A stretch of 64,000 nt of DNA from Selenomonadaceae bacterium (GTDB lineage: Bacteria > Bacillota > Negativicutes > Selenomonadales > Selenomonadaceae). Under the pieces are notes generated by a model. It saw only the letters and a program-made list of their open reading frames with translations, did no database searches and was not told the DNA's origin. Every line of letters begins with the position of its first letter. Within the stretch, counting starts at the first letter, position 1. Position numbers and translations under genes: made by a program. Positions 1 to 48,092 of this stretch are shown in pieces. Location: contig JAFSWY010000172.1 of assembly GCA_017444295.1 (NCBI GenBank), forward strand, positions 7,548 through 71,547, written 5' to 3'.

Positions 1-1305
1 CGCCTTGGGGCAATCATGGATGATAAGGCCCTCCTTCTTGTAAGGCTCGGAAGGGGGGGCGGGTGGTGTGGGCGTAGGCGTATTTGTTGGGTCATTGCTG
101 GCATCGTAGATGCCAAGCGCAGGAGAACTATCCTTGGTGAAATAATAGGTTCCGTTGCCATCTGTGTCAATGCCCACATTATGGGAAGTATCCACGGAAA
201 CAAGTGTCCCGCTGGTGTATGTATAGTAATGGCTTCCGCCGGTATTGTTTGCCTGAGCGCTCTTGATTCCGTCGTACAATGCCTTCGCCAAATCGGATAC
301 ATTGGCAACATCAGCTATGCCGATGGTATATGCCTTTGCCTGGGGATTCGTTGTTGATGGATTGTTGTCATAAGTGGAAGCAGAGTTAGCTAGGCTGGCA
401 TCAAAGCGGAAATTCAGGAACTGATAACATGCACCGCAGAGAATAGAGAATCCCTGTTGGTTGAAATCCCCTACGGTGGGTGTGGAGCCATCTGTGGTAC
501 GCACTGCACCAGAAAAGTCAATCTTGACCTTCGTGCCGCCAGAGTAGGATTGCTGGGCAGTAGCATTGATAGGGCCGCCCCTGAACATCTGCCCCCCGGA
601 ACTTGTGCCTGTCATGGCAGAGAAGTTGGAGGCCAAATTTCTCACCGAAGTATTTTGCACCAAGCCGCTGGCGGTAGTGGCCGGTCCCGAGGCAGCCGTG
701 CTTGCCGCACTTGCAGCCGCCCAGTTCGCCCGATTGCTGGGCCGATAAACCCACACATCCTCAATGGGCAATTGGGTGGTGGTCATGCCATTGTAGAGTG
801 GCACAGTAAGCGACCCGTTGCTGTCCTTGTCCATGGGAAGCTGCACCGGGTCGGTGTACTTCATGGCATCCGGGGACTCATAGCGGCCGTCCAGAAGAAT
901 CTTCCCGTTGTAGCTGGTCTCCGAGGCGATGTCCTGGATGAGATCCATCCGCTTGTCGTATTCCTTTTGAAGGGTTGCCCGATCCGAGTCCGTGTTGTGG
1001 TCGTTCATGGCATTCAGGCACATTTCCTTCATGGAGCGAAGGTTGTTGATGATGGACTGGATGCCTCCCTCCGCCACGGCCACAAGGCTGTTCCCCGTCT
1101 GGACGTTTCGGATGTTCTGGTTCAGGGAACGAATCTGCACCCGCATCTTCTCGGAGATGGAGTACCCGCTGGCATTGTCCCCGGAGCTGTTGAAGTCCAT
1201 CCCCGTGGACACCTTTTTCAGCGACTTGGATAGGTTGCTGTTGTTCTGGTTCAAGGTGTTCAGGGCACTGTTCGCCGCAAGGTTGTTCCTCACCTTCATT
1301 GACAT
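1..1305 (-). CDS. fliC: Flagellin paralog 1, N-terminal 435 codons. The ORF runs off the left window edge, so it is absent from the ORF track.
   Basis: Manual translation from ATG at 1305 gives MSMKVRNNLAANSALNTLNQNNSNLSKSLKKVSTGM...SGYSISEKMRVQIRSLNQNIRNVQTG, a canonical flagellin D0/D1 N-terminus. It is collinear with the 1635-3344 flagellin, including the QQGFSILCGACYQF block. The frame stays open to position 1. Confidence 0.9.
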   Translation of the reverse strand, partial: MSMKVRNNLAANSALNTLNQNNSNLSKSLKKVSTGMDFNSSGDNASGYSISEKMRVQIRSLNQNIRNVQTGNSLVAVAEGGIQSIINNLRSMKEMCLNAMNDHNTDSDRATLQKEYDKRMDLIQDIASETSYNGKILLDGRYESPDAMKYTDPVQLPMDKDSNGSLTVPLYNGMTTTQLPIEDVWVYRPSNRANWAAASAASTAASGPATTASGLVQNTSVRNLASNFSAMTGTSSGGQMFRGGPINATAQQSYSGGTKVKIDFSGAVRTTDGSTPTVGDFNQQGFSILCGACYQFLNFRFDASLANSASTYDNNPSTTNPQAKAYTIGIADVANVSDLAKALYDGIKSAQANNTGGSHYYTYTSGTLVSVDTSHNVGIDTDGNGTYYFTKDSSPALGIYDASNDPTNTPTPTPPAPPSEPYKKEGLIIHDCPKA

Positions 1306-1530: not shown

Positions 1531-1589
1531 GCGATTTTTACTGTATACTTTGCAATCCCTCGCAGAGGAACAGGAAACCGCAGGAGCGC

Positions 1590-1634: not shown

Positions 1635-3344
1635 CTATTGCAACAAGTCCAGCACGCCGCCCACGTTCTGGTTGGCCTGGGACAGCATGGACTGTGCCGT
1701 CTGGGAAAGGACGTTGTTCTTCGTATAGGTCATCATTTCCTTTGCCATGTCCGCATCCTGCATGGTGGACTCCGCGCTCTGGGTGTTCTCCTGGTCTATC
1801 ACCAGATTGTCCTCGGTGAAGCCGAGGCGGGAACGGTAGGCTCCCATGCGGGTGGCCTCGTTCAGGCTGTACTCAATGGCAAAATTCACATAACCGAGGG
1901 AAAGCGCCGCCAACTCCCTCGGGGTTGTGGCCGTCCCCTCGATTTTCAGTGCCCGTGGGTGCATGCTGTTGATGTAGACAGGGAGGTACTGGTTCTGCTT
2001 GGGGCCGTGATGGATGATGAGGGGATTGCCCGGCTCGTCTTCCTCATCAGATGCCGCCTCCGGCTCCGGATCCGGTGGCAGAGCCCAAGGGGGCGTATTC
2101 TTGTCATAAGTGCCATCATCATTGATACCAAGAATAGGCGACGAATCTTTTGAAATATAGTACTTCCCCGTGGGGTTGCCCTGAGAATCTGTTTCTTTTA
2201 CAAGATTCACATTGTGTCGTTCATCGATGGATACCACTGTTGCCGAATCGGAACGCAATGTGTTTGGTCTGGAACCATTGGCTGTGGCATAATTCGTATG
2301 GCTTGCAGCAATTCCGTCAAAAAGCGCAGCTTCCAAGTCCGATTCGTTTGTAACACCTTGTATCCCGATGGTGTATTCCCTTGCCTGTGAGTTCTTAGTG
2401 GAATATGCGGGGTTGTATGTGGATGCAGAAGTTGCCAAATTGGCATCAAAACGAATATTGATGAATTGATAGCATGCACCGCAAAGAATGGAAAATCCCT
2501 GCTGGTCAAAGTCCGAAGGATAACTGGCTGCCGTACCGTTCACGTTAGCGGCAGAAAAATCCACATATACTCCGATGCCCCCGGAATAGGACGTTTTCGC
2601 CTCGATTCCCACCGCAGTATGGGCAAACCCGGGACCGGCGGTTGTGTAGTTCCTCCCCGAAAAATTTGTTGCCAAATCCGATATGGTGTTCTGTATTATG
2701 GATCCACTCGTACCGGATGTACCAGCAGTACTGGATGCACTTGAGGTAGATGTGGTATATACACTTCCCGCAGGATTCGCTGTCTTGTATTTCCACACCG
2801 ATGTCACCGGGTCATTGGTGTATTCCACATTGTACACCGGCAACAGGTTCCCGTACTTGTCCTCTTCCAAGGGCAGTTCCACCGGGGCCTCGTAGCGCAT
2901 GGACTTGGGAGAATAATACTGGCCGTTCAGCAGCCTTCGCCCGTTGTAGTCCGTTTCCGCCGCAATGTCCGTGATGGTTTCCATGCGCTTGGAATATTCC
3001 TTGTTCAAGGTGTCCCTGTCCTGATCCGAGTTATGATCGTTCATGGAGTTCAGGAGCATTTCCTTCATGGTGCGGAGATTGTCCAGCACCGACTGGATGC
3101 CGCCCTCCGCCACGGCAATGAGGTTGTTCCCCGTCTTGACGTTCTGCACGTCCTGCCCCAGGGCGCGAACCATGACCTCCATTTTCTTCCCGATGGCATA
3201 GCCCGAAGAATCATCTCCCGCCCCGGTAATCCTCATGCCGGAGGACACCTTCTTGAGGGATTTCGCCAGCGCGCTGTTGTTCGCGTTCAACGTGTTCAGT
3301 GTATTATTCGCCGAAAGATTGTTCTTTACCACCATGGGCATCAT
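1635..3344 (-). CDS. fliC: Flagellin paralog 2 (569 aa) with a large variable central domain
   Basis: N-terminus MMPMVVKNNLSANNTLNTLNANNSALAKSLKKVSSGMRITGAGDDSSGYAIGKKM. C-terminus ...MAKEMMTYTKNNVLSQTAQSMLSQANQNVGGVLDLLQ. Both are canonical flagellin N and C domains. Confidence 0.97.
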   Translation of the reverse strand: MMPMVVKNNLSANNTLNTLNANNSALAKSLKKVSSGMRITGAGDDSSGYAIGKKMEVMVRALGQDVQNVKTGNNLIAVAEGGIQSVLDNLRTMKEMLLNSMNDHNSDQDRDTLNKEYSKRMETITDIAAETDYNGRRLLNGQYYSPKSMRYEAPVELPLEEDKYGNLLPVYNVEYTNDPVTSVWKYKTANPAGSVYTTSTSSASSTAGTSGTSGSIIQNTISDLATNFSGRNYTTAGPGFAHTAVGIEAKTSYSGGIGVYVDFSAANVNGTAASYPSDFDQQGFSILCGACYQFINIRFDANLATSASTYNPAYSTKNSQAREYTIGIQGVTNESDLEAALFDGIAASHTNYATANGSRPNTLRSDSATVVSIDERHNVNLVKETDSQGNPTGKYYISKDSSPILGINDDGTYDKNTPPWALPPDPEPEAASDEEDEPGNPLIIHHGPKQNQYLPVYINSMHPRALKIEGTATTPRELAALSLGYVNFAIEYSLNEATRMGAYRSRLGFTEDNLVIDQENTQSAESTMQDADMAKEMMTYTKNNVLSQTAQSMLSQANQNVGGVLDLLQ

Positions 3345-3392
3345 CCATCAACTCCTTGTTGCAAAAATCTTTCTTTCCTGAAAAAATAGCAT

Positions 3393-3406
3393 ATCCTTTG
3401 CAATCC
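3393..3406 (-). promoter_or_regulatory. Conserved flagellin leader box GGATTGCAAAGGAT (candidate CsrA site)
   Basis: The same box, GGATTGC(A/G)A(A/G)GGAT, occurs in the flagellin-3 leader at 41252-41265. A related copy GGGATTGCAAAG lies at about 1548-1560. GGA is the core of CsrA sites. Confidence 0.35.
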
Positions 3407-3413
3407 AACAGAT

Positions 3414-3441
3414 ATATCGTCATTTTCATAAAAAACCTTAA
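3414..3441 (-). promoter_or_regulatory. Sigma28-type promoter for flagellin paralog 2
   Basis: Minus strand: TTAA, 18 nt, CGATAT, about 70 nt upstream of the ATG at 3344. Confidence 0.55.
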
Positions 3442-3560
3442 GGCAAAATATCTTTATTATATTCTTTCCTGAAATTTCCTTAATCCATCCTCAAATGCAA
3501 AAAGGCTCCCATCTCCGATATTGCATAAAAAAACGGCAATAAAAATAATTTATCAGAATC

Positions 3561-3589
3561 TTGCCAAGGGTCAGAATCCATGATATAAT
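3561..3589 (+). promoter_or_regulatory. Near-consensus sigma70 promoter of orphan RNA gene 1
   Basis: TTGCCA (3561-3566), 17 nt, TATAAT (3584-3589). It is preceded by an A/T-rich UP-like tract, aaaaaaacggcaataaaaataattt. Confidence 0.65.
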
Positions 3590-3595
3590 ACAAGC

Positions 3596-3924
3596 AAATA
3601 GAGGGAAACGACCAGCGAGCCGCCCGCAGGGCCTTGGAGGGCAGGCGGCAGCGGTAGCCGAAACAGGCTTCCCTCTGGTGTAGGCGAAAGGGCGGATGTC
3701 TATTGATGCTTGACGGACAGGGAACCCCTTCGGACTGACTGATGAGTGCCACCTGTGAAGCGAGAGGATGTCCATCGAGGCAGGGGCGCGGAAACGTGCC
3801 TGAGGCTATATGGAATCGTCATTTGCACCGTCATCAGGAGGAAAGAACAGAGACACGAGGTTTTCACGAATGCCAATCTACGGGTAGACCGGCTTGCAGC
3901 GGTGTTGCAAGCCGGTTTTATTTT
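3596..3924 (+). ncRNA. Candidate structured small RNA, about 330 nt, family unknown
   Basis: Bounded by the promoter above and a strong terminator. No ORF with a ribosome-binding site. Complementary segments: 3600-3607/3669-3676 (8 bp) and 3710-3719/3769-3778 (9 of 10 bp). Eleven GGA triplets, including two GGATGTC. Confidence 0.5.
3889..3924 (+). terminator. Intrinsic terminator of RNA gene 1. It probably also stops the convergent glycosyltransferase operon.
   Basis: CCGGCTTGCA-gcggtg-TTGCAAGCCGG hairpin followed by TTTTATTTT. It lies 7 nt from the stop codon at 3931 of the minus-strand gene. Confidence 0.8.
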
Positions 3925-3930
3925 GCCCCG

Positions 3931-5130
3931 TTATTCCCCGGCATCCCTCCGCACCCTTGGCTCCTTCCGCATCAGCTCGTCGATGGCCGCGATGACCTGC
4001 CGGGGGGAGATGCGCTTGGAGCATTCCAGCTCCCGTTCCGTCCCGTTGTGGTAGGGGCAGATTTTCGACTGGAAGCGGGTCCGTATGTCATTGAAGCATC
4101 CATGGCACACATGGCGGTTGAGAATCCGGTAAGGCGTGTAGAACTCGCACCATGGCTGCGACATGCCGCTGATGAGGATCACCGGGCACCCCACGGCATG
4201 GGCCAGCCAGGAAAGGCCACTGCCAAGGCCGATGAAGAAATCCGCATAGTAGAGCATGTTTGCCCTGTCCATGATGCTGCGGTCCCCCGTCATGTCCTCC
4301 GCGCTGTCCGGCATCAGTGTCTCATAGTTCAGCTCCCGCTGGTAGGCGTGGCGGTCAATGCAGATGACCCGGTACCCCAGAGCGTTCAAATAGTCGGAAA
4401 CGATATCCCATCCACGGGGATAATGCCATCCCTTCGACAAGGTGGAGGCCTGCACGGCAATGCAGACATATTTCCCCTTCACGACACGGGGCCGCGTGGG
4501 ATGGAACGGGGGCAGGGGCGCAGGCCCGTGAACCCCCACGATTTCCCCTGCCATCTCATCCATGGGAAATGTCCGGGTATCGATGGGCGCTCCCATCTTG
4601 GTGTCAAACCATGCCGCCAGATAAAAAATGGCATAGGTATCCTCGGGCGCCTTCTCCCCCAATTGCGGAATCCCCGGATACAAATGCTCCGCAAGCTCCC
4701 TCAGATACTCCCCCTCCAGCTTATAATAAACCTCGCAGTGATACTTTTCCTTGAAGGCCTGGGCATAGGGAAGGGCAGCCAACGTGTCCCCCATGGCTCC
4801 CCAGACACTGTAGAACACCACCGTCTGCCCTTCGGGATCGAAGACATGGGAAAACACCGGCTCGCCATCCTTTTTCACATCGACGGCCCACCGGACAAAA
4901 TACTTTTCCATGGAAATGAGCAGAATGTCCGACACATCCTCATCCAGGAACATGTCCTCCGTATCATGGTCATATATCGATACATGCCAGTTCCCTTCCG
5001 GAACCTGCAAGCGAAGCCCTTGCCGAAAATCCAGCCTCAGGCCCGGAATCCCCGTCTCGCCCTGTACCGGCCCGGCAAATGGTTCCCATTCCTTGAACAG
5101 GCTCATTTGTGACAGCCAACGCTTATCCAT
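3931..5130 (-). CDS. GT9-fold heptosyltransferase-like protein resembling the TibC/Aah (BAHT) autotransporter O-heptosyltransferases
   Basis: GT9-like block FFIGLGSGLSWLAHAVGCPVILISG. C-terminal four-Cys cluster HVCHGCFNDIRTRFQSKICPYHNGTERELEC. The start was moved to ATG 5130 (GGAGG 8 nt upstream); the track start at 5199 is a GTG. Confidence 0.6.
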   Translation of the reverse strand: MDKRWLSQMSLFKEWEPFAGPVQGETGIPGLRLDFRQGLRLQVPEGNWHVSIYDHDTEDMFLDEDVSDILLISMEKYFVRWAVDVKKDGEPVFSHVFDPEGQTVVFYSVWGAMGDTLAALPYAQAFKEKYHCEVYYKLEGEYLRELAEHLYPGIPQLGEKAPEDTYAIFYLAAWFDTKMGAPIDTRTFPMDEMAGEIVGVHGPAPLPPFHPTRPRVVKGKYVCIAVQASTLSKGWHYPRGWDIVSDYLNALGYRVICIDRHAYQRELNYETLMPDSAEDMTGDRSIMDRANMLYYADFFIGLGSGLSWLAHAVGCPVILISGMSQPWCEFYTPYRILNRHVCHGCFNDIRTRFQSKICPYHNGTERELECSKRISPRQVIAAIDELMRKEPRVRRDAGE

Positions 5131-5205
5131 AGGCATGTCCTCCGGGTTCCTGCAAGTGAAGTAGCGAATCTCTCCCACGAAACCTCCCCCTCTTCCCACG
5201 CCGGT

Positions 5206-5865
5206 TCAGGAATCCTCGTATTCCCTGACCCGGAGCGTGAGATTCCTCTCCTCGCAAATCTTTCGGCAACGGGCGATTTCCTCGGCATCCTCCACCCTGT
5301 CCACAACGGTCAGAACCACATGCGGCACATATTTCTTGCAGTGCTCCGCAAAGGTGAGCATTCCCTCGTAGGATGCAATGCCGTGCTTCGCCCGTGTGAG
5401 TTCCAGGTAGCGCTCCGCGTTAGAGGCGTTGAGGCTGATGGAGACGGTGTCCAGCACGCCCTCGTAGTCCGCGGCGATTTCCCGCCCGTATTCCAGCTCG
5501 CCGAGTCCGTTGGTGTTGAGCCGTGTCGCCATGCCCGGATGCCGTTCCTTCACATAGTGCAGAAGAGCTGCCAGAACATCCTGCCGCTGGGTTGGCTCGC
5601 CGAAGCCGCAGAACACGACCTCCTTGATGTATTCCCAGGGCACGCTGTCCAGCTCTCTTTCGATTTCCTCAAGGGACGGCTCCTTTTTCAGCCAGAGGGA
5701 GGATTCCTCCGCCATCTTCTTCATGTTGCGCAGGCAGAACACACAGGAACAGTTGCAGCGGTTCGTGATGTTGACGTAGAGGTTCCGCTTGCCCTCCGGC
5801 TGAATCTTGAGGCTTTCCTCCAAGGGCAGGTACTTTCCTCCCTTGTGTGTCGCATATACAATCAT
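5206..5865 (-). CDS. Small radical SAM enzyme (219 aa)
   Basis: CxxxCxxC motif within NITNRCNCSCVFC. GGE-like FCGFGEPT. TNG motif. AAGGAG ribosome-binding site 8 nt before the ATG at 5865. Confidence 0.8.
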   Translation of the reverse strand: MIVYATHKGGKYLPLEESLKIQPEGKRNLYVNITNRCNCSCVFCLRNMKKMAEESSLWLKKEPSLEEIERELDSVPWEYIKEVVFCGFGEPTQRQDVLAALLHYVKERHPGMATRLNTNGLGELEYGREIAADYEGVLDTVSISLNASNAERYLELTRAKHGIASYEGMLTFAEHCKKYVPHVVLTVVDRVEDAEEIARCRKICEERNLTLRVREYEDS

Positions 5866-6020
5866 TGGGACATCTCCTTTTCCATGGCTTCCACGGCCAT
5901 CCCGTACTGCTGCCAGAGTTCCGGGGAAACCTCATCCCTCATCGGCGCAAACGCCTGCCGAAGCCCGCAGAAATTGCGGCAGGCGCGCAGGCGCTTTTCT
6001 GCGGGCAGTTCCCGCCCGTA

Positions 6021-8591
6021 CTAATTCAGCAGGGCAAACCATTCCATCTGGTGCCAGAGGAGGTCGTTTGCCGCAAGAGGTGCGCCCGTTCGTTCGCAAA
6101 GCGGTTCCCCGATGATCCCCACAGCCCCGTCCCCGGCCCGGGCGAGCTGCTGCAAAAGATGCGCCCACATCACATAGGGCAGGGGCTTCCCGTCGAGGAA
6201 ACAGGGCCGCAGCCACCGGCATTCCTCCATCAGGGAACGGCACACCAATGCTCCGTTCATGCTTCCGGAAGGATATTTCCCCCTGCAAAGGAGTTCCTGC
6301 CAAAGGGATTCCGGGGAAACCATCCCGAAGACGGGATCCACCCGGACATCCGTGTACGGATCTGTCGGGGCAAATTCCCTCCTGCCGTCCGCAAACAGTA
6401 TCCCAAAGGAGAAATCCTGGGATTCCGTGCAGGCGACCATTTTCATAAGCTTGTCCTCCTGCATGGAATATCCTGGCAGCAGCCACTGCACATATTCCCC
6501 CGTTGCCTCCCGGGAAAGCTGCCGGAAAACATCCTCTCCGGACATATCGTCCAGGAAGCGGATGCCCTCCCGCAAACCTTCCGGCAGCTGCGCCTGTTCC
6601 GTCGATGCCCCAATACCACAGACAAAAATCTCCTTGAAGGGATATGTCTGGGTCATGGCAAGACCCAAATTCCTGCATAACTCCTCATCGTCACCCAAAT
6701 AAGGGATGGCAACCGTGACCCGCTTCCCCTGCCGCAAGACCTTTTCCTCAAGGTATGCCTCCGCAATGAGCACGCTTGCCCCCATGAGATTGCGCAGGAC
6801 ATCGGGCCGCACGTCCCCGCTGTAGCGCAGGGGGATTTCCTCGCAATAGGGCTTGAGGTCGAAGTCCATCGGCTCCTCGATGGCAGAGCCGGGCGAAACG
6901 GTCTCCCCCTTGCCCAGCTTCTCGTAGCAGGTCTTGAGATAGGAGGCCGTCGGCGTGTAAACGGAATACTTCGCCACGTTGTTGATCCAGCTCGTCGCCA
7001 CCTTTGCGGCATACTGCTCATCGCTGCGCCAATGGTAATGGGCCAGGTGCAGATCCGGCACAACGGTCCAGGGAACCTTCTCTCCCGTGGCCTCCCAGCA
7101 GGCATAATGGCAACCCTGCATGAGACGGAAGCCCGGTCGAAGCGCAATCTCCCCTCCCACAGCCAGCTTCTGCCCGGGGGCGAAGTCCCTGCTGCGCCTG
7201 CAGGGACGGGAGAGCAGGAACCTTCCTTCCTCCTCGTGCTGGCGAAGGGGCTCGTAGAGCCGCCATTCCAGCTTGTGCAATTCCTCCGGGGAAAGTCCCT
7301 CCAATACCTCCCTGCAGGATTTTTCGCTGTCGGTATTGACCAGAAACTCGTCTGCGTCCAGGGGCAGGACGAGGTCGGCATGATGCTCCCTCACGGCCTC
7401 CCGCAAAAGCTCGTTCATAACCTCTGCATGGGCAAGCTCCACAGGCCGGAGCATCCGAACGAAAACAGGCAGTCCCTCTGCCTGAAGATTTTCGAGAATC
7501 TCTCCCGTCTTGTCCGCGCTGCTGTGGTTGGCAATGATGATCTCGTCGGCAAAGGCCAGGCTATGGCGGACAAAGCTCTCGATGATGTCTGCCTCATTCT
7601 TCACCATGGAGACAACGACAATTTTCCGCCCGTTTTTTTCTCTTTCCTGCAAACAAACCGCTTCCCTTCCATCAAGAATGGCACGGATTCCATCCATGCA
7701 CTGCGCATAGGCGTCCCATGCGCCGCACTCCAGAAATTCCGGCATTCGGTACGGTTTCACCCGATCATACTCATCCCGCAAAAGGGCCAGAAGATGCGCA
7801 TAGTCCTCCCGGGTTTCCAGGAACACGCGCCTCCTGTAATACTCCGTGCCCAGTCGGAACCATTCCATCCTGCTTTGCAGGATCACGTCCTTCTGCTGCC
7901 CTTCCTGCTCCCCATGGCGGCGGTAGTAGCTCAAGGAATCGCGGAAAACCGCGCATTTCCCCTTTTCCAGCAGTTCCAGCCACATGGCAACATCCGAGAT
8001 CGTCCTGTAGCCTTTCGCCTCCGCACGCCAGTAATGATGTTGCAGGTCCCGCCTGCGAAAGAGCACTGCAGAAGGCTCGCCGATGTAGTTCCGCATGTCC
8101 CGCAGCATGCGCCGCCCAAGTTCTGCACCGTCGAACACCTGGCAGGTCTCTCCGTTTTCCAGCCCCAGAAAGGAAAGCTTCCCGACCTTGCTTCCCTCCC
8201 CGTCCATCACACCCCGCTGTGAGGTCACAAGCGTTATCCCCGGGTCCCGCTCAAAACATTCCACCATGAGCCGGAGCTTTTCCGGTTCCAGCACATCGTC
8301 ATCCATGAGCCATTGCAGATACTCGCCATGGGCCAAATCCTCAAAAGGCATGAAATTTTCTTCCTTGGTCATTGCCCTTCGGTTTCTCACGTACCGCACA
8401 CGGGAATCCCCGGCATATCCCTGCATCAGCTGCGCGGTCGCCTCGTCGCGGCTGTTGTCGCAGACGATGATCTCGACTTTGGGATAGGTCTGGGCCAGGG
8501 CGCTCCGCAAAGTCTTCTCAAACAACTTCGGGCGCTCATAGGTCGGTATCATAATGCTGACAAGCCCTTGTACGGTCTCCGCTGTAGACAT
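6021..8591 (-). CDS. Three-module glycosyltransferase (856 aa): N-terminal GT2, central GT2-like module, C-terminal GT2-like module
   Basis: N-terminal module: VSIMIPTYERPKLFEKTLRSALAQTYPKVEIIVCDNSRDE. Central module: KIVVVSMVKNEADIIESFVRHSLAFADEIIIANHSS. C-terminal module: VTVAIPYLGDDEELCRNLGLAMTQTYPFKEIFVCG. Confidence 0.8.
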   Translation of the reverse strand: MSTAETVQGLVSIMIPTYERPKLFEKTLRSALAQTYPKVEIIVCDNSRDEATAQLMQGYAGDSRVRYVRNRRAMTKEENFMPFEDLAHGEYLQWLMDDDVLEPEKLRLMVECFERDPGITLVTSQRGVMDGEGSKVGKLSFLGLENGETCQVFDGAELGRRMLRDMRNYIGEPSAVLFRRRDLQHHYWRAEAKGYRTISDVAMWLELLEKGKCAVFRDSLSYYRRHGEQEGQQKDVILQSRMEWFRLGTEYYRRRVFLETREDYAHLLALLRDEYDRVKPYRMPEFLECGAWDAYAQCMDGIRAILDGREAVCLQEREKNGRKIVVVSMVKNEADIIESFVRHSLAFADEIIIANHSSADKTGEILENLQAEGLPVFVRMLRPVELAHAEVMNELLREAVREHHADLVLPLDADEFLVNTDSEKSCREVLEGLSPEELHKLEWRLYEPLRQHEEEGRFLLSRPCRRSRDFAPGQKLAVGGEIALRPGFRLMQGCHYACWEATGEKVPWTVVPDLHLAHYHWRSDEQYAAKVATSWINNVAKYSVYTPTASYLKTCYEKLGKGETVSPGSAIEEPMDFDLKPYCEEIPLRYSGDVRPDVLRNLMGASVLIAEAYLEEKVLRQGKRVTVAIPYLGDDEELCRNLGLAMTQTYPFKEIFVCGIGASTEQAQLPEGLREGIRFLDDMSGEDVFRQLSREATGEYVQWLLPGYSMQEDKLMKMVACTESQDFSFGILFADGRREFAPTDPYTDVRVDPVFGMVSPESLWQELLCRGKYPSGSMNGALVCRSLMEECRWLRPCFLDGKPLPYVMWAHLLQQLARAGDGAVGIIGEPLCERTGAPLAANDLLWHQMEWFALLN

Positions 8592-8634
8592 GTTTTCCCC
8601 GCTTTCTCCGAAATCATGCCAGTGATTTGATTTC

Positions 8635-9483
8635 TCATTTCAGCTGCGTAAGGTACTCCTCAAAAGGCAGGCCATAATTCCAGGGCAAGTCCAGCTTCAC
8701 CGCATGGCGGAGAACCTTGCTGATGAAGATTGCCGCCTTCTGGACGGCCTGGCTCAAGGTCTCCCCGTTCACAAGGCTGGCGGCAACGATGGCGGCAAAG
8801 GCATCCCCCGAGCCGGAACGGTCGTCGCCCACCCGCTTCACCCGCAGAACCTCAGTGCCACGGTCACGTTCATAGATGAAATTCTCTACGAAGTCCTCCT
8901 CATGCAGCCCCGTGATGACCACCTGGCGCGGGCCGCGATTGGAAAGTTCCTCCGCCATCCGCCGAAGTTCCCCGTCATCCACGATGCCCCCTTCGGGGTA
9001 AGGGATATCGAGAAGCCAACAAGCCTCCGTCAGGTTCGGCGTCACGAGATCCGCATGAACGAGAAGTTTCCGCATCTCCGCGCACATCTCCGGCGTATAG
9101 GAAGAATAGAGCCTGCCATAGTCCCCCATGACAGGGTCCACCATGACTTTCGTGTTCTCCTTCTTGAAATGGGCGATGAAATCCTCCACGATCCCGATCT
9201 GCTCCACGGAGCCGAGAAATCCCGTGCAGATGCCGTCGAACTCCAGCCCGTTCTCCTTCCAGTTCTCCATGTAGGGGCGCATGCGCTCCGTATAGTCGTC
9301 GATATAATGGGATTCAAACCCCGTATGCACCGACAGGATTGCTGTCGGGAAAGGACATGCCTGTATCTTCATTGCCGAAATAAGAGGCAGCTCCACGGTC
9401 ATGGAGCAACGCCCAAAGCCCGTAATGTCATTGATGAGCGCGATGCGCTTTTGTCGTTTCACTTTCGGATCCCACCTAAACAT
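8635..9483 (-). CDS. pdxK: Pyridoxal/pyridoxamine kinase (ribokinase superfamily)
   Basis: IALINDITGFGRCS...FDGICTGFLGS...DPVMGD...GSGDAF motifs. ATG at 9483; the track start at 9486 is a TTG. Confidence 0.85.
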   Translation of the reverse strand: MFRWDPKVKRQKRIALINDITGFGRCSMTVELPLISAMKIQACPFPTAILSVHTGFESHYIDDYTERMRPYMENWKENGLEFDGICTGFLGSVEQIGIVEDFIAHFKKENTKVMVDPVMGDYGRLYSSYTPEMCAEMRKLLVHADLVTPNLTEACWLLDIPYPEGGIVDDGELRRMAEELSNRGPRQVVITGLHEEDFVENFIYERDRGTEVLRVKRVGDDRSGSGDAFAAIVAASLVNGETLSQAVQKAAIFISKVLRHAVKLDLPWNYGLPFEEYLTQLK

Positions 9484-9532
9484 CAAGATTTTCTCTATGT
9501 ATCATTATACCACAAATCAAGAGATTCCATAA

Positions 9533-9566
9533 GCAAAAGCCTTCCCATCCAAGGAAGGCTTTTGCT
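9533..9566 (-). terminator. Hairpin after queF
   Basis: GCAAAAGCCTTCC/GGAAGGCTTTTGC 13-bp stem immediately downstream of the queF stop at 9570. The trailing U-run is weak. Confidence 0.45.
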
Positions 9567-9569
9567 TCG

Positions 9570-10064
9570 TTATCGATTATCCACTTTGTCCATTCCCGCC
9601 ATGTCATGGCCCGCAAAGCGCTCCCAGGCAAGCTTTTCATATTTCGTGCCGGGCCTGCCGTAGTTGGCATAGGGGTCAATGGAAATGCCTCCGCGGGGAA
9701 GGAATTTCCCCCAGACCTCAATGTAACGAGGCTCCATGAGCCTGATGAGATCCTTCATGATGATGTTCACCACATCCTCGTGGAAATCGCCATGGTTCCG
9801 GAAACTCACAAGATAGAGCTTCAGTGACTTGCTCTCCACCATTTTCCTGTCCGGCACATAGGAAATATAGATGGTTGCAAAATCCGGCTGCCCTGTGATG
9901 GGGCAGAGGGTCGTGAATTCCGGGCAGTTGAATTTCACCCAGTAATCATTGTCCGGATGCTTGTTCTCAAAGGTTTCCAGCAGTTCCGGCGAATAATCAT
10001 AGCCATAGGCAACATTCTTCTGCCCCAGCAGGGTAATGTTCTCCCTGTCCCTTTCCCGTGCCAT
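9570..10064 (-). CDS. queF: NADPH-dependent 7-cyano-7-deazaguanine reductase
   Basis: [27 protein letters not shown] is the QueF type I signature, with the catalytic Cys in the CP(I)TGQPD context. Confidence 0.93.
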
Positions 10065-10067
10065 GGC

Positions 10068-11771
10068 TCACTCCCCTGCCTTCCCGTCGAGGAACTTCTC
10101 CTCAAAGTTCTCGACGGATTCCGGGCGCCCGAACAGGTAGCCCTGAATGGTGTCCGCATTGCATTCCTGCCGCAGGAGCTTGTACACCTCTTCTTCCTCC
10201 ACGCCTTCGATGCAGGTGCGGATCCCGATGCTGTGGCAGAGCTCCACCGTATATTTTACCAGGCGGCGGTCAAAATCATTCTCCAGGATATTCTTCACAA
10301 ATTCCCTGTCAATCTTCACAATATCACAGGAAAGGTTCTTGAGTGTCGCCAGAGAGGAATATCCCGTGCCGAAATCATCCATGGCAATAGAAATGCCCTT
10401 CTTGCGGAAGTGGTCGAACTCGCGGTTGACGAAATTCCAGTCCGCGATGATCTTGCTTTCCGTAAGCTCCAGCACCAATGCCTCCGGCGGCACATCGTAG
10501 CGGTCAATGCACTCGTTCACGAAATCCTTGAAGCTTGCATCCTTGACCTGCTCATAGCTCAAATTCACACTGACCCTGAAATTCGGCACGATTCTTCGCC
10601 ATTTCTTGCATACGCGCAGGGCTTCCTCCACAATCCAGCGTCCCACGGGAATGATGAGCCTCGTCTCCTCCAGGATTGGGATGAATTCCATGGGCGCAAC
10701 CATGCGCCCCTTGGGGCTCTTCCAGCGAAGCAGCGCTTCCGCCCCGATGAGGCACTGGTCCTCCGCCGACACCTGGGGCTGAAAGAAAAGGCTGAATCCC
10801 GTGCATCCATTCTCCACGCTTTCCCTGAGATTGTCCCGCATGGAAATCGATCGTACCCAGCGGTTATACTCTTCCTTGCTGAAAATGCAGTTGCGGTTCT
10901 TTCCGTCCCGCTTCGCGATATCCATTGCCGCCTCAGCATATTTATGGAGAACCAGATAATCCTTTCCGTTGGCCGGATAAAAGACGGTCCCGCCTGAAAC
11001 CGTGCAGAAATAGGTATGCCCATCCAGGATCTGGGGCTGTGCCAGGCTGCGCTGGATCCCTGTAAAAATATCCTGCACATCCCCCTCACCGGCTCCCGGA
11101 TAAATAATGGCAAACACATCTCCGTCCAGCTTGTAGAGGGTCAGCATGGGAGGCAGGATACTTTCAACCGTGCGGGCGACATGGCGGAGCACCTGGTCGC
11201 CCACCAGCCGGTTATAGGTTTCATTGACAATCTTGAAATTGTCCAGACCGAAAAGGATGACAGCACCGCCTTCCTCTGTGGCGCGGTAGCCTGCCAATGC
11301 CATCTTTACGCCATGCTCGAACTGGTACTTGTTGAGGAGCCCCGTGACCTCGTCTGCCTGGTTCCTCTGTGCCATGCGCGTCATCATGCCTGTGAACACG
11401 ACAGGAACGCCTTCCTTGTCCAACCCGACACGGCCGCGGCAGCGTATCCAGACATACTCGCCCTTCCTGTTCTTTACACGATACTCCAGGAAATGCTCAT
11501 ATACATTCCGGCTTTTCATGATGGCCCGCATGGAAGCCATATATGGCCCCCGCTCCTCCGGATGAATCATCGGATCCCAATACTGGTCAAAATCATAGAG
11601 CACCTCCCCCGGCAGATTGAAATCCTGCACAAGGTTCGGCGATACCATGACCGTGTTTGTCTGCATATCTGCACAAAAGAGATATGCATCCGTCGTCCGC
11701 TTCATGAGATCAAAGAAAAACTTGTATCTCTTCAGCAGCGGGCTCAGGGAAGCCCGATTGTTCTTTTGCAT
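10068..11771 (-). CDS. PAS, degenerate GGDEF and EAL protein; likely a c-di-GMP phosphodiesterase
   Basis: The GGDEF site is replaced by DGDVF and YGH by YNR. EAL motifs are intact: EALLRW, DDFGTGYSSL, KIDREF, EGVE, QGYLFG. Confidence 0.85.
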   Translation of the reverse strand: MQKNNRASLSPLLKRYKFFFDLMKRTTDAYLFCADMQTNTVMVSPNLVQDFNLPGEVLYDFDQYWDPMIHPEERGPYMASMRAIMKSRNVYEHFLEYRVKNRKGEYVWIRCRGRVGLDKEGVPVVFTGMMTRMAQRNQADEVTGLLNKYQFEHGVKMALAGYRATEEGGAVILFGLDNFKIVNETYNRLVGDQVLRHVARTVESILPPMLTLYKLDGDVFAIIYPGAGEGDVQDIFTGIQRSLAQPQILDGHTYFCTVSGGTVFYPANGKDYLVLHKYAEAAMDIAKRDGKNRNCIFSKEEYNRWVRSISMRDNLRESVENGCTGFSLFFQPQVSAEDQCLIGAEALLRWKSPKGRMVAPMEFIPILEETRLIIPVGRWIVEEALRVCKKWRRIVPNFRVSVNLSYEQVKDASFKDFVNECIDRYDVPPEALVLELTESKIIADWNFVNREFDHFRKKGISIAMDDFGTGYSSLATLKNLSCDIVKIDREFVKNILENDFDRRLVKYTVELCHSIGIRTCIEGVEEEEVYKLLRQECNADTIQGYLFGRPESVENFEEKFLDGKAGE

Positions 11772-23432: not shown

Positions 23433-23521
23433 GGAGAGGTGTCCGAGTGGTTTAAGGAGCTGGTCTTGAAAACCAGTGATGCGGCAACGCAACTTGGGTT
23501 CGAAACCCACCCTCTCCGCCA
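23433..23521 (+). tRNA. tRNA-Ser (anticodon UGA), long variable arm, encoded CCA
   Basis: Acceptor GGAGAGG/CCTCTCC. Anticodon stem-loop CTGGT-CTTGAAA-ACCAG. T-arm GGTTCGAAACC. Confidence 0.9.
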
Positions 23522-23533
23522 TAAGAAACGACA

Positions 23534-23576
23534 GCCCATCCCCCAGGATAAATTCCTCTGAGGGATGGGCTTTTTT
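23534..23576 (+). terminator. Intrinsic terminator after tRNA-Ser
   Basis: GCCCATCCC...GGGATGGGC stem followed by TTTTTT. Confidence 0.8.
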
Positions 23577-23632
23577 CTGCAGGTTTTCCTGCAATGGAAA
23601 AGCACGCCCTTTGGCGTGCTTCTTTGGCAATA

Positions 23633-23709
23633 TGGTGGCGGCACAGAGACTTGAACTCCGGACACTGCGGGTATGAACCGCATGCTCTAGCCAGCTGAGC
23701 TATGCCGCC
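23633..23709 (-). tRNA. tRNA with CAU anticodon: elongator Met, or Ile2 if lysidine-modified
   Basis: Reverse complement: GGCGGCATAGCTCAGCTGGCTAGAGCATGCGGTTCATACCCGCAGTGTCCGGAGTTCAAGTCTCTGTGCCGCCACCA. Confidence 0.88.
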
Positions 23710-23710
23710 A

Positions 23711-23799
23711 TGGTGGTGGGCAGGGATGGATTCGAACCATCGTAATCCGAAGATGACAGATTTACAGTCTGTTGCCTTTAACCACTCGGCCACCTACCC
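23711..23799 (-). tRNA. tRNA-Tyr (anticodon GUA), long variable arm
   Basis: Reverse complement begins GGGTAGGTGGCCGAGTGG. Anticodon loop CTGTAAA. The 3-prime end reads GGTTCGAATCCATCCCTGCCCACCA. Confidence 0.88.
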
Positions 23800-39420: not shown

Positions 39421-41229
39421 TTATTGAAGCAAACTCAACACCGCAGAACTGTTCTGGTTCGCCTGGGAAAGCATGGACTGCGCCGACTGCAGGAGCACGT
39501 TGTTCTTCGTGTACTCCGTCATCTCCTTCGCCATGTCCGCATCGCGGATCGTGGACTCGGAATTCTGCACATTCTCCGCCGCCGTGGTCAGATTGCTTGC
39601 CGTGTACTCCAGACGGCTCTGGAGCGCACCGATGGTGGTCTGCTCATTGAGGGCCTTCCGCAGGGACTGGTCAAACAGGCGAATGGCATCATTAGCCTGC
39701 TCCCTGGTGGCAATGCTCACCTTCGTGCCATCAGCCGCCTCAAGCCCCATGGCCTTGGCCCGCATATCGTGGAACCCGAACTTGATGGACTGGTTGGCCT
39801 TGGTGCCCACCTGCAGAGTCAGATCCCCCACCTTGCCGCCGTAGTTCGATTCCCAATGGACGGTCAATCCGTCAATGATGGAGGTCTTGCTCTCCGGCGC
39901 ATACCAGAAGGTGGTGGAGCCTCCCTCCGGCACAACGCTGTCCTTGGTCTTCGCCATGCGCCTTCCGCTGGCATCGCTGCCCGTGATGGCACCGGTGTCA
40001 TCGTTGGTCAAGTCAATACCGCAACAATTCAGCAAAAATTCATCATCTGTTGCCGCCGCTGCCGCATCTGCCTTAAACTGTGTTATTAATCCCGTCCACG
40101 TGGAGAACTTCCCCCCCGTTGCAGCACTGACAGCACCATCCAACGCACTGGCTCCATGATGCACCAACACGTTCATGAAATTCTTCATGGCATCTTCCCC
40201 GCCTTGATTTGCCATATAGCGGAGAGCCATATATCCTCCTGTATAATAGATTGTTGTCCCTGTCCCTGTCGAGGTGAAATCCGATAGGGACGCACCATTG
40301 ACAGCAGCTCTCGTCAATCCACTCTTTTGCTCATCATCAATACCATGCACCAGTTCAGCCATGCCCTCTGCGATAGCCCCTGGAAGTGTCCCGAAATTAT
40401 TGATTGACGAGGCCATAATCGCATGAACCATTTCATGGGCAATCGTACGATCCAAAGTTCCCCCTATAAGCTGGCTCGAATTGTTTGGATCTGGAATAAA
40501 TGCCGTTCCATTTACATTGGACGTGTCATGTATATCCAGATTCTTAAAGAATCTCATATTCACCGTGAGGTCAAGCGAATTCGTCCTGCCATTTGAACCA
40601 CCATTATTGAAGGACACCCATGCCAATGCATTCGCCTGATTACCGGACGTGACCTCTTCAAGCTTTACATTGATATCCTTGCAATCCGCCCATTCATTCC
40701 TGAAGCTGACCCCATAGGACTGCTCAATCAAGTCCAGTGCATTCTCCAGCCATTCGGTGCTCAGCGCACTGACAATCATGTCCTGCACCGTCTCGTTTTG
40801 GATTCCCGTCTGTCCGTCCAGGAGATACTTGCCGTTGTACTGCACCAAGGCATTGTCGTCCACCTGCTGGACGTACTGGTTCACTTCCTTCTGCATGATG
40901 GCGCGGTCCTCGTCCGTATTGTGGTCGTTGGCGGAGTCCAGCGCCTTCTCCTTGAGGGTCCGAAGGATGTCCACCGTAGAGGACACGGCCCCTTCCGCCA
41001 CCTTCAACAGTGCCGTGCCATTCTGCGTGTTGCGGATGTCCTGTTCCAGCCCGCGAAGCTGGACGCGCATCTTCTCCGAGATGGAGTAGCCCGAGGCATC
41101 ATCCCCCGCGCCGTTGATGCGCATGCCAGAAGAGACCTTCTTGAGGCTCTTGGAGAGGGCATTCGAGTTCTCGTTCAACTGGTTCAGCGTATTCACCGCC
41201 GACATATTGTTCTTTACCACCATTGCCAT
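39421..41229 (-). CDS. fliC: Flagellin (602 aa) with a zincin metalloprotease-like module in the variable region (flagellinolysin-type)
   Basis: Canonical flagellin ends: MAMVVKNNMSAVNTLNQLNENSNALSKSLKKVSSGMRINGAGDDASGYSISEKM at the N-terminus and MAKEMTEYTKNNVLLQSAQSMLSQANQNSSAVLSLLQ at the C-terminus. The central domain contains HEMVH (aa 265-269, nt 40423-40437) followed by AEGMAE 19-23 aa later. Confidence 0.9.
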   Translation of the reverse strand: MAMVVKNNMSAVNTLNQLNENSNALSKSLKKVSSGMRINGAGDDASGYSISEKMRVQLRGLEQDIRNTQNGTALLKVAEGAVSSTVDILRTLKEKALDSANDHNTDEDRAIMQKEVNQYVQQVDDNALVQYNGKYLLDGQTGIQNETVQDMIVSALSTEWLENALDLIEQSYGVSFRNEWADCKDINVKLEEVTSGNQANALAWVSFNNGGSNGRTNSLDLTVNMRFFKNLDIHDTSNVNGTAFIPDPNNSSQLIGGTLDRTIAHEMVHAIMASSINNFGTLPGAIAEGMAELVHGIDDEQKSGLTRAAVNGASLSDFTSTGTGTTIYYTGGYMALRYMANQGGEDAMKNFMNVLVHHGASALDGAVSAATGGKFSTWTGLITQFKADAAAAATDDEFLLNCCGIDLTNDDTGAITGSDASGRRMAKTKDSVVPEGGSTTFWYAPESKTSIIDGLTVHWESNYGGKVGDLTLQVGTKANQSIKFGFHDMRAKAMGLEAADGTKVSIATREQANDAIRLFDQSLRKALNEQTTIGALQSRLEYTASNLTTAAENVQNSESTIRDADMAKEMTEYTKNNVLLQSAQSMLSQANQNSSAVLSLLQ

Positions 41230-47815: not shown

Positions 47816-48092
47816 AAAGAAGGAACTGCCTGGGATGTGCGTGGACTTTCATATATGTCTAACCTACATTTTTTACAGGGAATCCGATTTGAATCCGACG
47901 GATGCTGGATCGTCCCGAACGAATAGCAGAAAGCGGACTTAGGATACCCACCTGCGAGTCGCAGGTTCTAGACATAAGAGAGGAACGGCATCCTGGACCC
48001 CTTTCTTGGAAGGGATTGCTGACAGATATGGCAGTCCCTTTTCTCGACACTTTCAAAGAACAGCCCTGCTATTTGTCCGGGGCTGTTTTTTT
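47816..48092 (+). ncRNA. Candidate structured small RNA, about 275 nt, family unknown
   Basis: No credible ORF. The 5-prime segment 47816-47830 pairs with 48030-48044 (13 of 15 bp). Further nested helices: 47851-47859/48021-48029 and 47900-47905/47988-47993. Twelve GGA triplets. Strong terminator CAGCCC...GGGGCTG plus T7 at 48061-48092. Confidence 0.45.

Follow-up and report, generated by a model that had tools for sequence, protein, structure and literature searches.

Transcription unit in the gap between a flagellin and a heptosyltransferase gene

The subject of this study is a predicted RNA gene of about 330 nucleotides (nt) in a 64,000-nt stretch of contig JAFSWY010000172.1 from a Selenomonadaceae bacterium (assembly GCA_017444295.1). 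This whole stretch of 64 kb is called the window below, and coordinates without a locus label are counted from its first letter. The RNA lies in an intergenic gap of 585 nt, which extends from the start of a flagellin gene (1635-3344, minus strand; Pfam Flagellin_N and Flagellin_C), its divergent neighbour, to the stop of a gene for a TibC-like family-9 heptosyltransferase (3931-5178, minus strand; Pfam PF21129 and PF01075), its convergent neighbour and the last gene of an operon in the lineage of the window. The left part of the gap, ~3345-3560, is A/T-rich and holds the flagellin leader; the right part, 3594-3885, has 60% G+C and is purine-rich on the plus strand.

A plus-strand promoter at 3552-3589 consists of the block ATCAGAATC, a -35 element TTGCCA, a 17-nt spacer and an extended -10 element TGATATAAT. 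A preliminary description of the region had proposed a near-consensus promoter here, and TTGCCA-17-TATAAT (3561-3589) indeed matches 11/12 consensus positions, has TG before the -10 element and is the sole sigma-70-like site that a consensus scan finds in 3300-4100. The strong hairpin with a T-run that had been read as the terminator is likewise borne out as the best terminator-like site: an intrinsic terminator at 3886-3924 has a 15-bp stem (3886-3918), a 3-nt loop and a U-run, with an A/G-rich tract on its 5′ side, and it adjoins the stop codon of the last gene of the convergent operon. From the positions of promoter and terminator, a primary transcript of ~327 nt is predicted to run from ~3596 to ~3922 on the plus strand, probably as one unit. 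The ~290 nt between promoter and terminator hold no conserved open reading frame (ORF), and this sequence occurs once in the window, with no second copy.

Relatives in rumen Selenomonas

Is the RNA peculiar to this one genome? The same RNA is present in seven further rumen Selenomonas lineages. Close relatives stand at the loci labelled here L001, L084, L085, L089, L090-92, L093 and L094-95, and distant ones at L096-103, a group that takes in the NCBI assemblies GCA_008271295.1 and GCA_017426545.1, and at L104. Full-length homologues were recovered by nhmmer with E from 1e-52 to 1e-102. In L001 the RNA shows 3 substitutions and the protein P0001 is 100% identical to the heptosyltransferase of the window, which places the window on a metagenome scaffold of a rumen Selenomonadaceae; in L084 and L085, where relatives of this glycosyltransferase have 76% and 68% identity, the RNA is found at the same place and in the same orientation. 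When the radical-SAM protein of the convergent operon served as the anchor, the RNA turned up in 3/3 lineages tried (L090-92, L093, L094-95). A metagenome scan with the invariant 19-mer GAGGCTATATGGAATCGTC gave three matches, one of them real (L089) and two by chance (L087 and L088). The chance match in L088 (1225-1260) lies in an unrelated metagenome contig, apparently where an ordinary gene has its ribosome-binding site (RBS) and start, which illustrates how much the invariant block resembles a Shine-Dalgarno (SD) sequence followed by AUG.

Both promoter and terminator are kept in position and in sequence in eight lineages. The block ATCAGAATCTTGyCAAG...TATGnTATAaT is retained in L085, L089, L090, L093 and L094. 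The distant forms L096-103 and L104 give weaker nhmmer matches (E = 6e-4 and 4e-5), which are co-located and co-oriented with the RNA, and each form has its own terminator and its own promoter of the TTGCAA-17-TGn(-10) type, reading TTGCAA-17-TGnTAATAT / TGCTATGAT in L102 and L104. A covariance model of the core (R1) recovers its training set and, of the distant forms, the linker block only; because this model failed on their structure, the membership of L102 and L104 is argued from position, orientation, promoter type and short conserved blocks. The L102 form is ~580 nt long. At L102 4195-4440 (minus strand), ~250 extra nt stand between the core and the terminator, without a counterpart in the RNA of the window and without a match to an Rfam family; the whole 586-nt stretch there has a folding z-score of -3.0.

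Other ways of searching gave nothing further. No relatives were found in GTDB genomes with the glycosyltransferase as anchor. With flagellin as anchor, GTDB genomes gave 80 loci, of which about a dozen are from Selenomonadaceae, and blastn, single-sequence nhmmer and profile nhmmer detected the RNA in none of the 80. BLAST of the RNA against plasmids and phages and one pattern scan of viral contigs gave no match, and an exact look-up of the flagellin protein of the window found it not on record.

Conserved fold

The structure was derived from an alignment (A4) of seven sequences, six of them full-length and the seventh, L084, ending at a contig edge. The fold that RNAalifold gives for these has 82 pairs, and compensatory changes are seen at 19. 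In the pair count, paired cells amount to 96.2% (shuffles: 91.8 +/- 0.6), and both partners have changed in 20/82 pairs (shuffles: 9.7 +/- 2.0); in neither case does any of 500 shuffles reach the observed value. When partners were slid by 1-3 columns as a control, pairing fell to 35-48%, with 3-8 double-changed pairs. Base pairs are thus kept by compensatory substitutions across independent lineages, as is expected of a conserved structured non-coding RNA.

The fold has two parts. The 5′ domain (3600-3676), drawn from pairing probabilities and covariation, is a three-way junction of helices P1, P2 and P3. P1 joins AGAGGGAA at 3600-3607 to TTCCCTCT at 3669-3676; this long-range complementarity had already been pointed out, and it is now backed by covariation in relatives (A-U to G-C, G-C to G-U). 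P2 pairs 3611-3624 with 3644-3655 and carries a tip (3625-3643) that differs in length and sequence between lineages, and P3 pairs 3657-3659 with 3666-3668 around a GAAACA loop. The listed pairs of P1 and P3 have a probability of at least 0.93, and five pairs of the three helices show compensatory changes. Next comes an unpaired 15-nt linker, GGAUGUCUAUUGAUG (3694-3708), which is conserved more widely than any other part of the family. The six full-length close sequences do not differ in it, it has no covarying partner, and it is the sole part recognised in L102 and L104 by both nhmmer and the covariance model, as GAAAGG..GAUGU.UAUUGA.GAU.

The 3′ domain (3710-3876, ~165 nt) is a long irregular rod of nested helices. 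RNAalifold places in it a weak helix of 3710-3715 with 3871-3876, a helix of 3728-3732 with 3856-3860, a long-range helix of 3735-3749 with 3825-3841, and a hairpin of 3767-3787 with 3798-3820, whose base is invariant and whose tip (3788-3797) ranges from 10 nt to >30 nt between lineages. In helices 4-8, those of the rod, pairing is 88-100% and both partners have changed in 12 pairs; in the long-range helix, for example, CUGAUGA/UCAUCAG becomes CGGUGA/UCACC in L085. Since single-sequence minimum free energy folds miss this covarying helix, they were not used as a model. The 3′ side of the base of the long hairpin is the block GAGGCUAUAUGGA (3802-3814), which pairs with UCCAU..AG at 3771-3779, is invariant in 7/7 close sequences and resembles an SD sequence with AUG. 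In the terminator helix that follows, pairing across lineages is 99%, and U-A pairs are replaced by C-G in compensatory fashion. In the whole molecule, then, two hairpins have constant bases and tips that differ in length and sequence.

A second complementarity of the preliminary description, between 3710-3719 and 3769-3778, fares less well. It is present in the window; in relatives it is 81% paired and shows no compensatory change, several substitutions break pairs in it, and covariation gives both arms other partners. Beside it stands an imperfect direct repeat (3694-3709 and 3766-3781, plus strand; GGATGTCTATTGATGC and GGATGTCCATCGAGGC, 13/16 identical), both copies of which can pair with 3710-3719 in the sequence of the window. 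Neither pairing is backed by covariation, and an alternative pairing of the GGAUGUC repeats was discarded for this reason.

Coding potential and known families

Can the transcript be a messenger? The region had been said to hold no ORF with a ribosome-binding site. This is not correct to the letter, because a 25-codon ORF at 3810-3887 (MESSFAPSSGGKNRDTRFSRMPIYG) has GAGG 4 nt before its AUG; what stands is that its frame is not conserved. An mRNA for this 25-residue peptide with a long structured leader would gain some credit from the fact that the ORF is open in the window, L084 and L085, with an in-frame 3-nt insertion in L085, and ends in all three at the same column with three different stop codons. 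However, the frame is broken by a 1-nt insertion in L089 and L090 and by a 1-nt deletion in L093 and L094, the shared stop is explained by the A/G-rich tract, which pairs there with the U-run of the terminator, and a codon-by-codon reading shows no third-position bias of substitutions. A peptide mRNA is therefore hardly credible, and because 1-nt indels destroy the ORF in four lineages the RNA is non-coding. The long plus-strand ORF of 456 codons at 3742-5112 is a shadow of the glycosyltransferase gene; it has no Pfam match, as is the case with the antisense ORFs searched, and a six-frame concatenated translation of the RNA used as a protein query found nothing.

The statement that the RNA belongs to no known family agrees with Rfam 15, which has no match in 3400-4000 at gathering thresholds; the best sub-threshold match, to a human long non-coding RNA model (E = 0.076), is noise under permissive filters. 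Rfam 15 gives no matches on seven homologous loci either, none of its riboswitch and ribozyme models scores, and ARAGORN sees neither tRNA nor tmRNA in the RNA. Some resemblances were followed and dropped. The hammerhead-like CUGAUGA (3739-3745) corresponds to UCGGUGA in L085 and is simply one strand of a helix, covarying with 3831-3837, and no Rfam hammerhead model scores on the RNA; GGGUAGACCGG merely resembles a T-box sequence; and GAGGAAAG, which recalls RNase P, is not conserved. The window has its own 6S RNA at 47824-48003 (plus strand; RF00013, 67.2 bits), so the RNA at 3596-3922 is not the 6S RNA of this organism. A promoter-like TTGTCA ... TGCTATGAT precedes that 6S RNA. Three tRNA genes (RF00005) lie at 23433-23799, two on the minus strand and one on the plus strand. 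Full-text literature searches found no description of the RNA; a survey from the Breaker laboratory that mentions Selenomonadales deals with different motifs, gltD and ldh2 (PMC8632094).

Surrounding genes

What is constant around the RNA is not the flagellin gene. Whatever its other neighbour, the RNA always stands tail-to-tail with the final gene of an operon on the opposite strand whose products are a PAS-GGDEF-EAL protein, QueF (preQ1 synthase), pyridoxamine kinase and a radical SAM protein of the TIGR04100/TIGR04038 type, joined in some lineages by a GT2 glycosyltransferase and a TibC-like glycosyltransferase. The terminator hairpin lies between a 5-nt overlap with, and a distance of 23 nt from, the last stop of this operon (six loci). 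On the divergent side there is a flagellin gene in the window, L085, L089 and L093, an acetyltransferase-GT2 gene in L090, a gene for a 407-residue protein with only a faint TPR match in L094, yqeB-comFC in L102, and yqeB-comFC-yvyF-flgM-flgN in L104. Because this neighbour varies while the 3′ end of the radical-SAM operon is constant, the link with flagellin is looser than it seemed. The RNA had been assigned to the motility locus, and it does border a motility region; it is not tied to flagellin or glycosylation genes as such. In the same way, what had been called a flagellin-glycosylation island is a variable insert in a housekeeping-looking operon, since only some lineages have glycosyltransferases placed within or behind the string.

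Some further observations concern these neighbours. The string of PAS-GGDEF-EAL, QueF, pyridoxamine kinase and radical SAM genes follows fumarate-reductase-like genes at 5206-11771 (minus strand) in the window and is conserved in L093, L094 and L096-L104; its radical SAM protein is of the TIGR04100/TatD-linked kind. At L104 4190-4345 (minus strand), past the terminator of the RNA, two strong hairpins, AAAAAGGCCCCGCC...GGGGCCTTTT and CCCCCTCAATGAGGGGG, stand before the radical-SAM stop. As the RNA there has its own terminator and two further hairpins follow, the RNA and the operon in L104 do not share a terminator. The window also contains a second flagellin gene (1-1303, minus strand), which starts at 1303, runs off the beginning of the window and is recognised only through L001, where its product has 560 residues, and a 258-codon plus-strand ORF at 457-1233 is a shadow of it. 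A third gene of the flagellin family at 39421-41229 (minus strand) matches the flagellinolysin model NF033876 with 276 bits, that is, a flagellin with an inserted HExxH metalloprotease domain.

GGA motifs and CsrA

The RNA had been proposed to be GGA-dense and to titrate CsrA. All eleven GGA triplets are at the positions given for them, and GGATGTC does occur twice, at 3694 and 3766. The supposed two- to threefold enrichment, however, is not there: the eleven triplets compare with 8.6 +/- 2.4 in mononucleotide shuffles (P = 0.22) and with 10.4 +/- 2.2 in dinucleotide shuffles (P = 0.48), and 22% of all 292-nt windows of the 64-kb sequence, on both strands, hold at least 11 GGA. A density inside the shuffled range had been named beforehand, in the preliminary description, as a refutation of the proposal. 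Across eight homologues the density is 1.65-4.9 per 100 nt, with L102 below expectation, and only L089 (mononucleotide shuffle only) and L090 (both shuffles) reach a nominal, uncorrected P < 0.05. For comparison, CsrB and RsmZ have ~6-7 GGA per 100 nt. With regard to conservation, GGA 3766 is replaced in relatives by AGA, AAA, GUG or GCA, GGA 3812 and 3837/3840 lie inside helices of the consensus structure as most conserved GGAs do, and GGA 3694 is the only one both invariant and unpaired. No lineage lacks a GGA in the purine-rich internal loop 3838-3855. An array of repeated GGA-loop hairpins is absent from the consensus structure.

Neither csrA nor fliW was found by tblastn in the window or in the Selenomonadaceae loci examined, and the same search does locate them, adjacent to flagellin genes, in loci of Lysinibacillus, Paenibacillus and Synergistaceae. 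With GGA at background level, most triplets paired or not conserved, and no csrA or fliW in the loci examined, the idea of a CsrA-titrating sponge is not supported; the pattern is compatible with one or two CsrA sites and not with a multi-site sponge. The flagellin leader itself looks like a CsrA-type leader, although csrA was not met in these loci. The GGATTGCAAAGGAT box reported in it is present at 3393-3406 (minus strand), with a second copy, one mismatch apart, at 1545-1558 (minus strand). The leader contains GGAUUGCAAAGGAU and AAGGAG, and the near-copy of the box precedes the second flagellin gene. Together with this leader, a promoter TAAG-N16-CGATAT, sigma-28-like by inspection, takes up roughly 3345-3460 (minus strand) upstream of flagellin, and in L089 a sigma-28-like promoter (CTTAAG-N-GCCGATAT) is duplicated in tandem (4408-4440 and 4502-4532).

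In this reading the RNA would be a decoy that binds the translational repressor CsrA through GGA and so relieves repression of flagellin mRNA, alongside or instead of FliW. In favour of such a decoy, every lineage has the GGAUG at 3694, unpaired and without change, the form in L102, AAGGAUGU, fully matches ARGGAUGU, the published consensus from systematic evolution of ligands by exponential enrichment (SELEX), the purine-rich loop is never without GGA, and the flagellin leader bears GGA boxes. The RNA also borders the late flagellar genes yqeB-comFC-yvyF-flgM-flgN in L104, the same order as at the start of the late flagellar cluster of Bacillus subtilis, a cluster that ends there in fliW-csrA-hag. 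Nevertheless, GGA is not enriched in the RNA of the window or in most homologues, the second GGAUGU is not conserved, the conserved GGAs are mostly paired with no series of GGA-loop hairpins, and the partner genes did not appear in the loci searched, so that a CsrA decoy is highly improbable.

Possible functions

There is little doubt that this is a real, conserved, structured non-coding RNA gene. The proposal of an independent gene with long-range structure and of no known family is upheld by the comparison across lineages. What such an RNA does is a far less certain matter. The explanation we prefer, and which we hold only tentatively when taken as a whole, is a stand-alone RNA of ~330 nt in rumen Selenomonas that acts in trans by binding a partner. 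It would be made constitutively from its own strong housekeeping-type promoter, would end at an intrinsic terminator back-to-back with the end of the convergent operon, and would fold into the 5′ three-way junction and the 3′ rod of nested helices. The covarying scaffold would hold invariant unpaired surfaces, namely several internal loops and the 15-nt linker, and these would bind a specific partner in trans, for which a protein is the likeliest candidate, ahead of a small ligand or another RNA. A covarying scaffold, variable tips, invariant loops and linker, a strong promoter and the lack of a downstream gene together suggest that a defined shape presenting fixed surfaces is what has been kept; action in trans and a binding role of the invariant loops are the likeliest reading of this pattern. 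A more particular version, in which the RNA is a decoy or scaffold for a late-flagellar regulator (CsrA, for example, via GGAUG and the GGA of the purine loop) or the RNA subunit of a new ribonucleoprotein peculiar to rumen Selenomonas, is decidedly speculative.

Several points weigh against the reading as a partner-binding RNA. Only six full-length sequences, from five lineages, are in the alignment, the fold was derived from the same alignment in which pairs were counted, and the folding z-score of the whole molecule is modest (-1.89). The covariance model of the close relatives could not align the structure of L102 and L104. Two close relatives, L002 and L086, have no RNA downstream of the glycosyltransferase, although the identity of their radical SAM proteins to that of the window is 83-84%; therefore the RNA is dispensable or mobile, and its presence is patchy. 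The transcript and its ends are predictions. Finally, protein binding is suggested by the pattern of invariant loops on a covarying scaffold, which would also fit a ligand-binding or catalytic RNA.

How else can such an RNA be explained? One alternative is a base-pairing small RNA (sRNA), one conserved unpaired block of which would be a seed for target mRNAs elsewhere, since the transcript is stand-alone, has its own promoter and a Rho-independent terminator, and displays invariant single-stranded blocks of 13-15 nt. It is, however, far larger and more elaborately structured than typical seed-type sRNAs, and it has several invariant blocks, not one. Moreover, these blocks are purine-rich and SD-like, not anti-SD, and no above-chance complementary site for the two main ones exists within the window, which is a small fraction of the genome. 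A seed-type sRNA is thus unlikely. Another alternative is a ligand-sensing or catalytic RNA, either an aptamer akin to an orphan riboswitch or a ribozyme, in which a pocket or active site would be formed by the invariant loops. The junction of several helices, the GAAA-type and invariant internal loops and the variable stems at the periphery are usual in RNAs that have a defined tertiary fold; the direct repeat GGAUGUCyAUyGA (3694 and 3766) permits alternative pairings with 3710-3719 in the sequence of the window. Yet these pairings have no support from covariation, no gene in sense orientation lies downstream to be regulated, the CUGAUGA that recalls a hammerhead is not conserved and covaries as a helix strand, and Rfam riboswitch and ribozyme models are silent, which leaves a sensor or ribozyme rather improbable.

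It may also be supposed that the element acts in cis on convergent transcription, by terminating or interfering with the radical-SAM/glycosyltransferase operon, while read-through in either direction would give antisense RNA. The tail-to-tail arrangement is invariant, with the hairpin at the operon stop shared as described, the A/G-rich tract 5′ and the U-tract 3′ of the stem give it a two-way look, and in L104 two more hairpins are found ahead of the operon stop in addition to the RNA's own terminator. But a role in termination or interference needs no 290 nt of covarying structure with invariant loops, only a weak U-tract follows the hairpin on the strand of the operon, and inspection of the fold data found no conserved antiterminator alternative to the terminator stem. 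Such a cis-acting element is, if anything, slightly less probable than a sensor or ribozyme.

Even with its function left at this level, the RNA is a well-supported structured family new to a major group of rumen bacteria, in which RNA biology has hardly been studied. The covarying scaffold, the invariant loops and the fixed slot beside the motility region make it a tractable object for finding a new RNA-protein or RNA-ligand partnership, and if the carrier GCA_008271295.1 is an isolate, as it appears to be though this is unconfirmed, then expression, partners and phenotype become directly testable. A tempting claim of a CsrA sponge in a Firmicutes-type lineage is removed as unsupported; should the decoy prove true after all, a FliW-type (Firmicutes-like) Csr system would have its first RNA antagonist.

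Comparison with known systems

With CsrB and RsmZ the Selenomonas RNA has in common that it is a non-coding transcript from promoter to terminator, of similar length, purine-rich and near motility genes, and that it has GGA motifs, including one invariant unpaired GGAUG. Unlike them, it is a junction and a rod, not a string of short hairpins, and its GGA density is at background. Antisense units of the riboswitch or excludon kind, such as the B12 riboswitch with AspocR in Listeria and the S-box antisense in Clostridium acetobutylicum, likewise consist of a structured leader and then a terminator aimed at a converging operon, but in the Selenomonas RNA neither a known aptamer nor a conserved antiterminator was found. 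The likeness to 6S RNA and Ms1, rod-shaped RNAs to which RNA polymerase binds, lies in a strong housekeeping-type promoter, from which high expression may be expected, and in a 3′ rod with large internal loops that are more conserved than the helices; the differences are the lack of a match to the 6S model and the additional three-way-junction domain.

The nearest likeness in kind is to the raiA motif RNA, OLE, ROOL and GOLLD, large orphan RNAs of bacteria that comparative genomics brought to light. All are stand-alone genes of hundreds of nt with their own promoter and terminator, and have a multi-domain fold backed by covariation, with invariant loops and variable peripheral stems; in all of them the function is not evident from gene context, and they come from anaerobic Firmicutes-type bacteria and rumen metagenomes. 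The Selenomonas RNA has no sequence or structure match to these Rfam 15 families, its range is much narrower, being one rumen Selenomonas group, and it occupies a fixed chromosomal slot instead of a prophage or variable context. Judged from its sequence and that of its relatives, the RNA is best described as a new family outside Rfam 15 but of a known kind, the orphan structured non-coding RNAs of bacteria.

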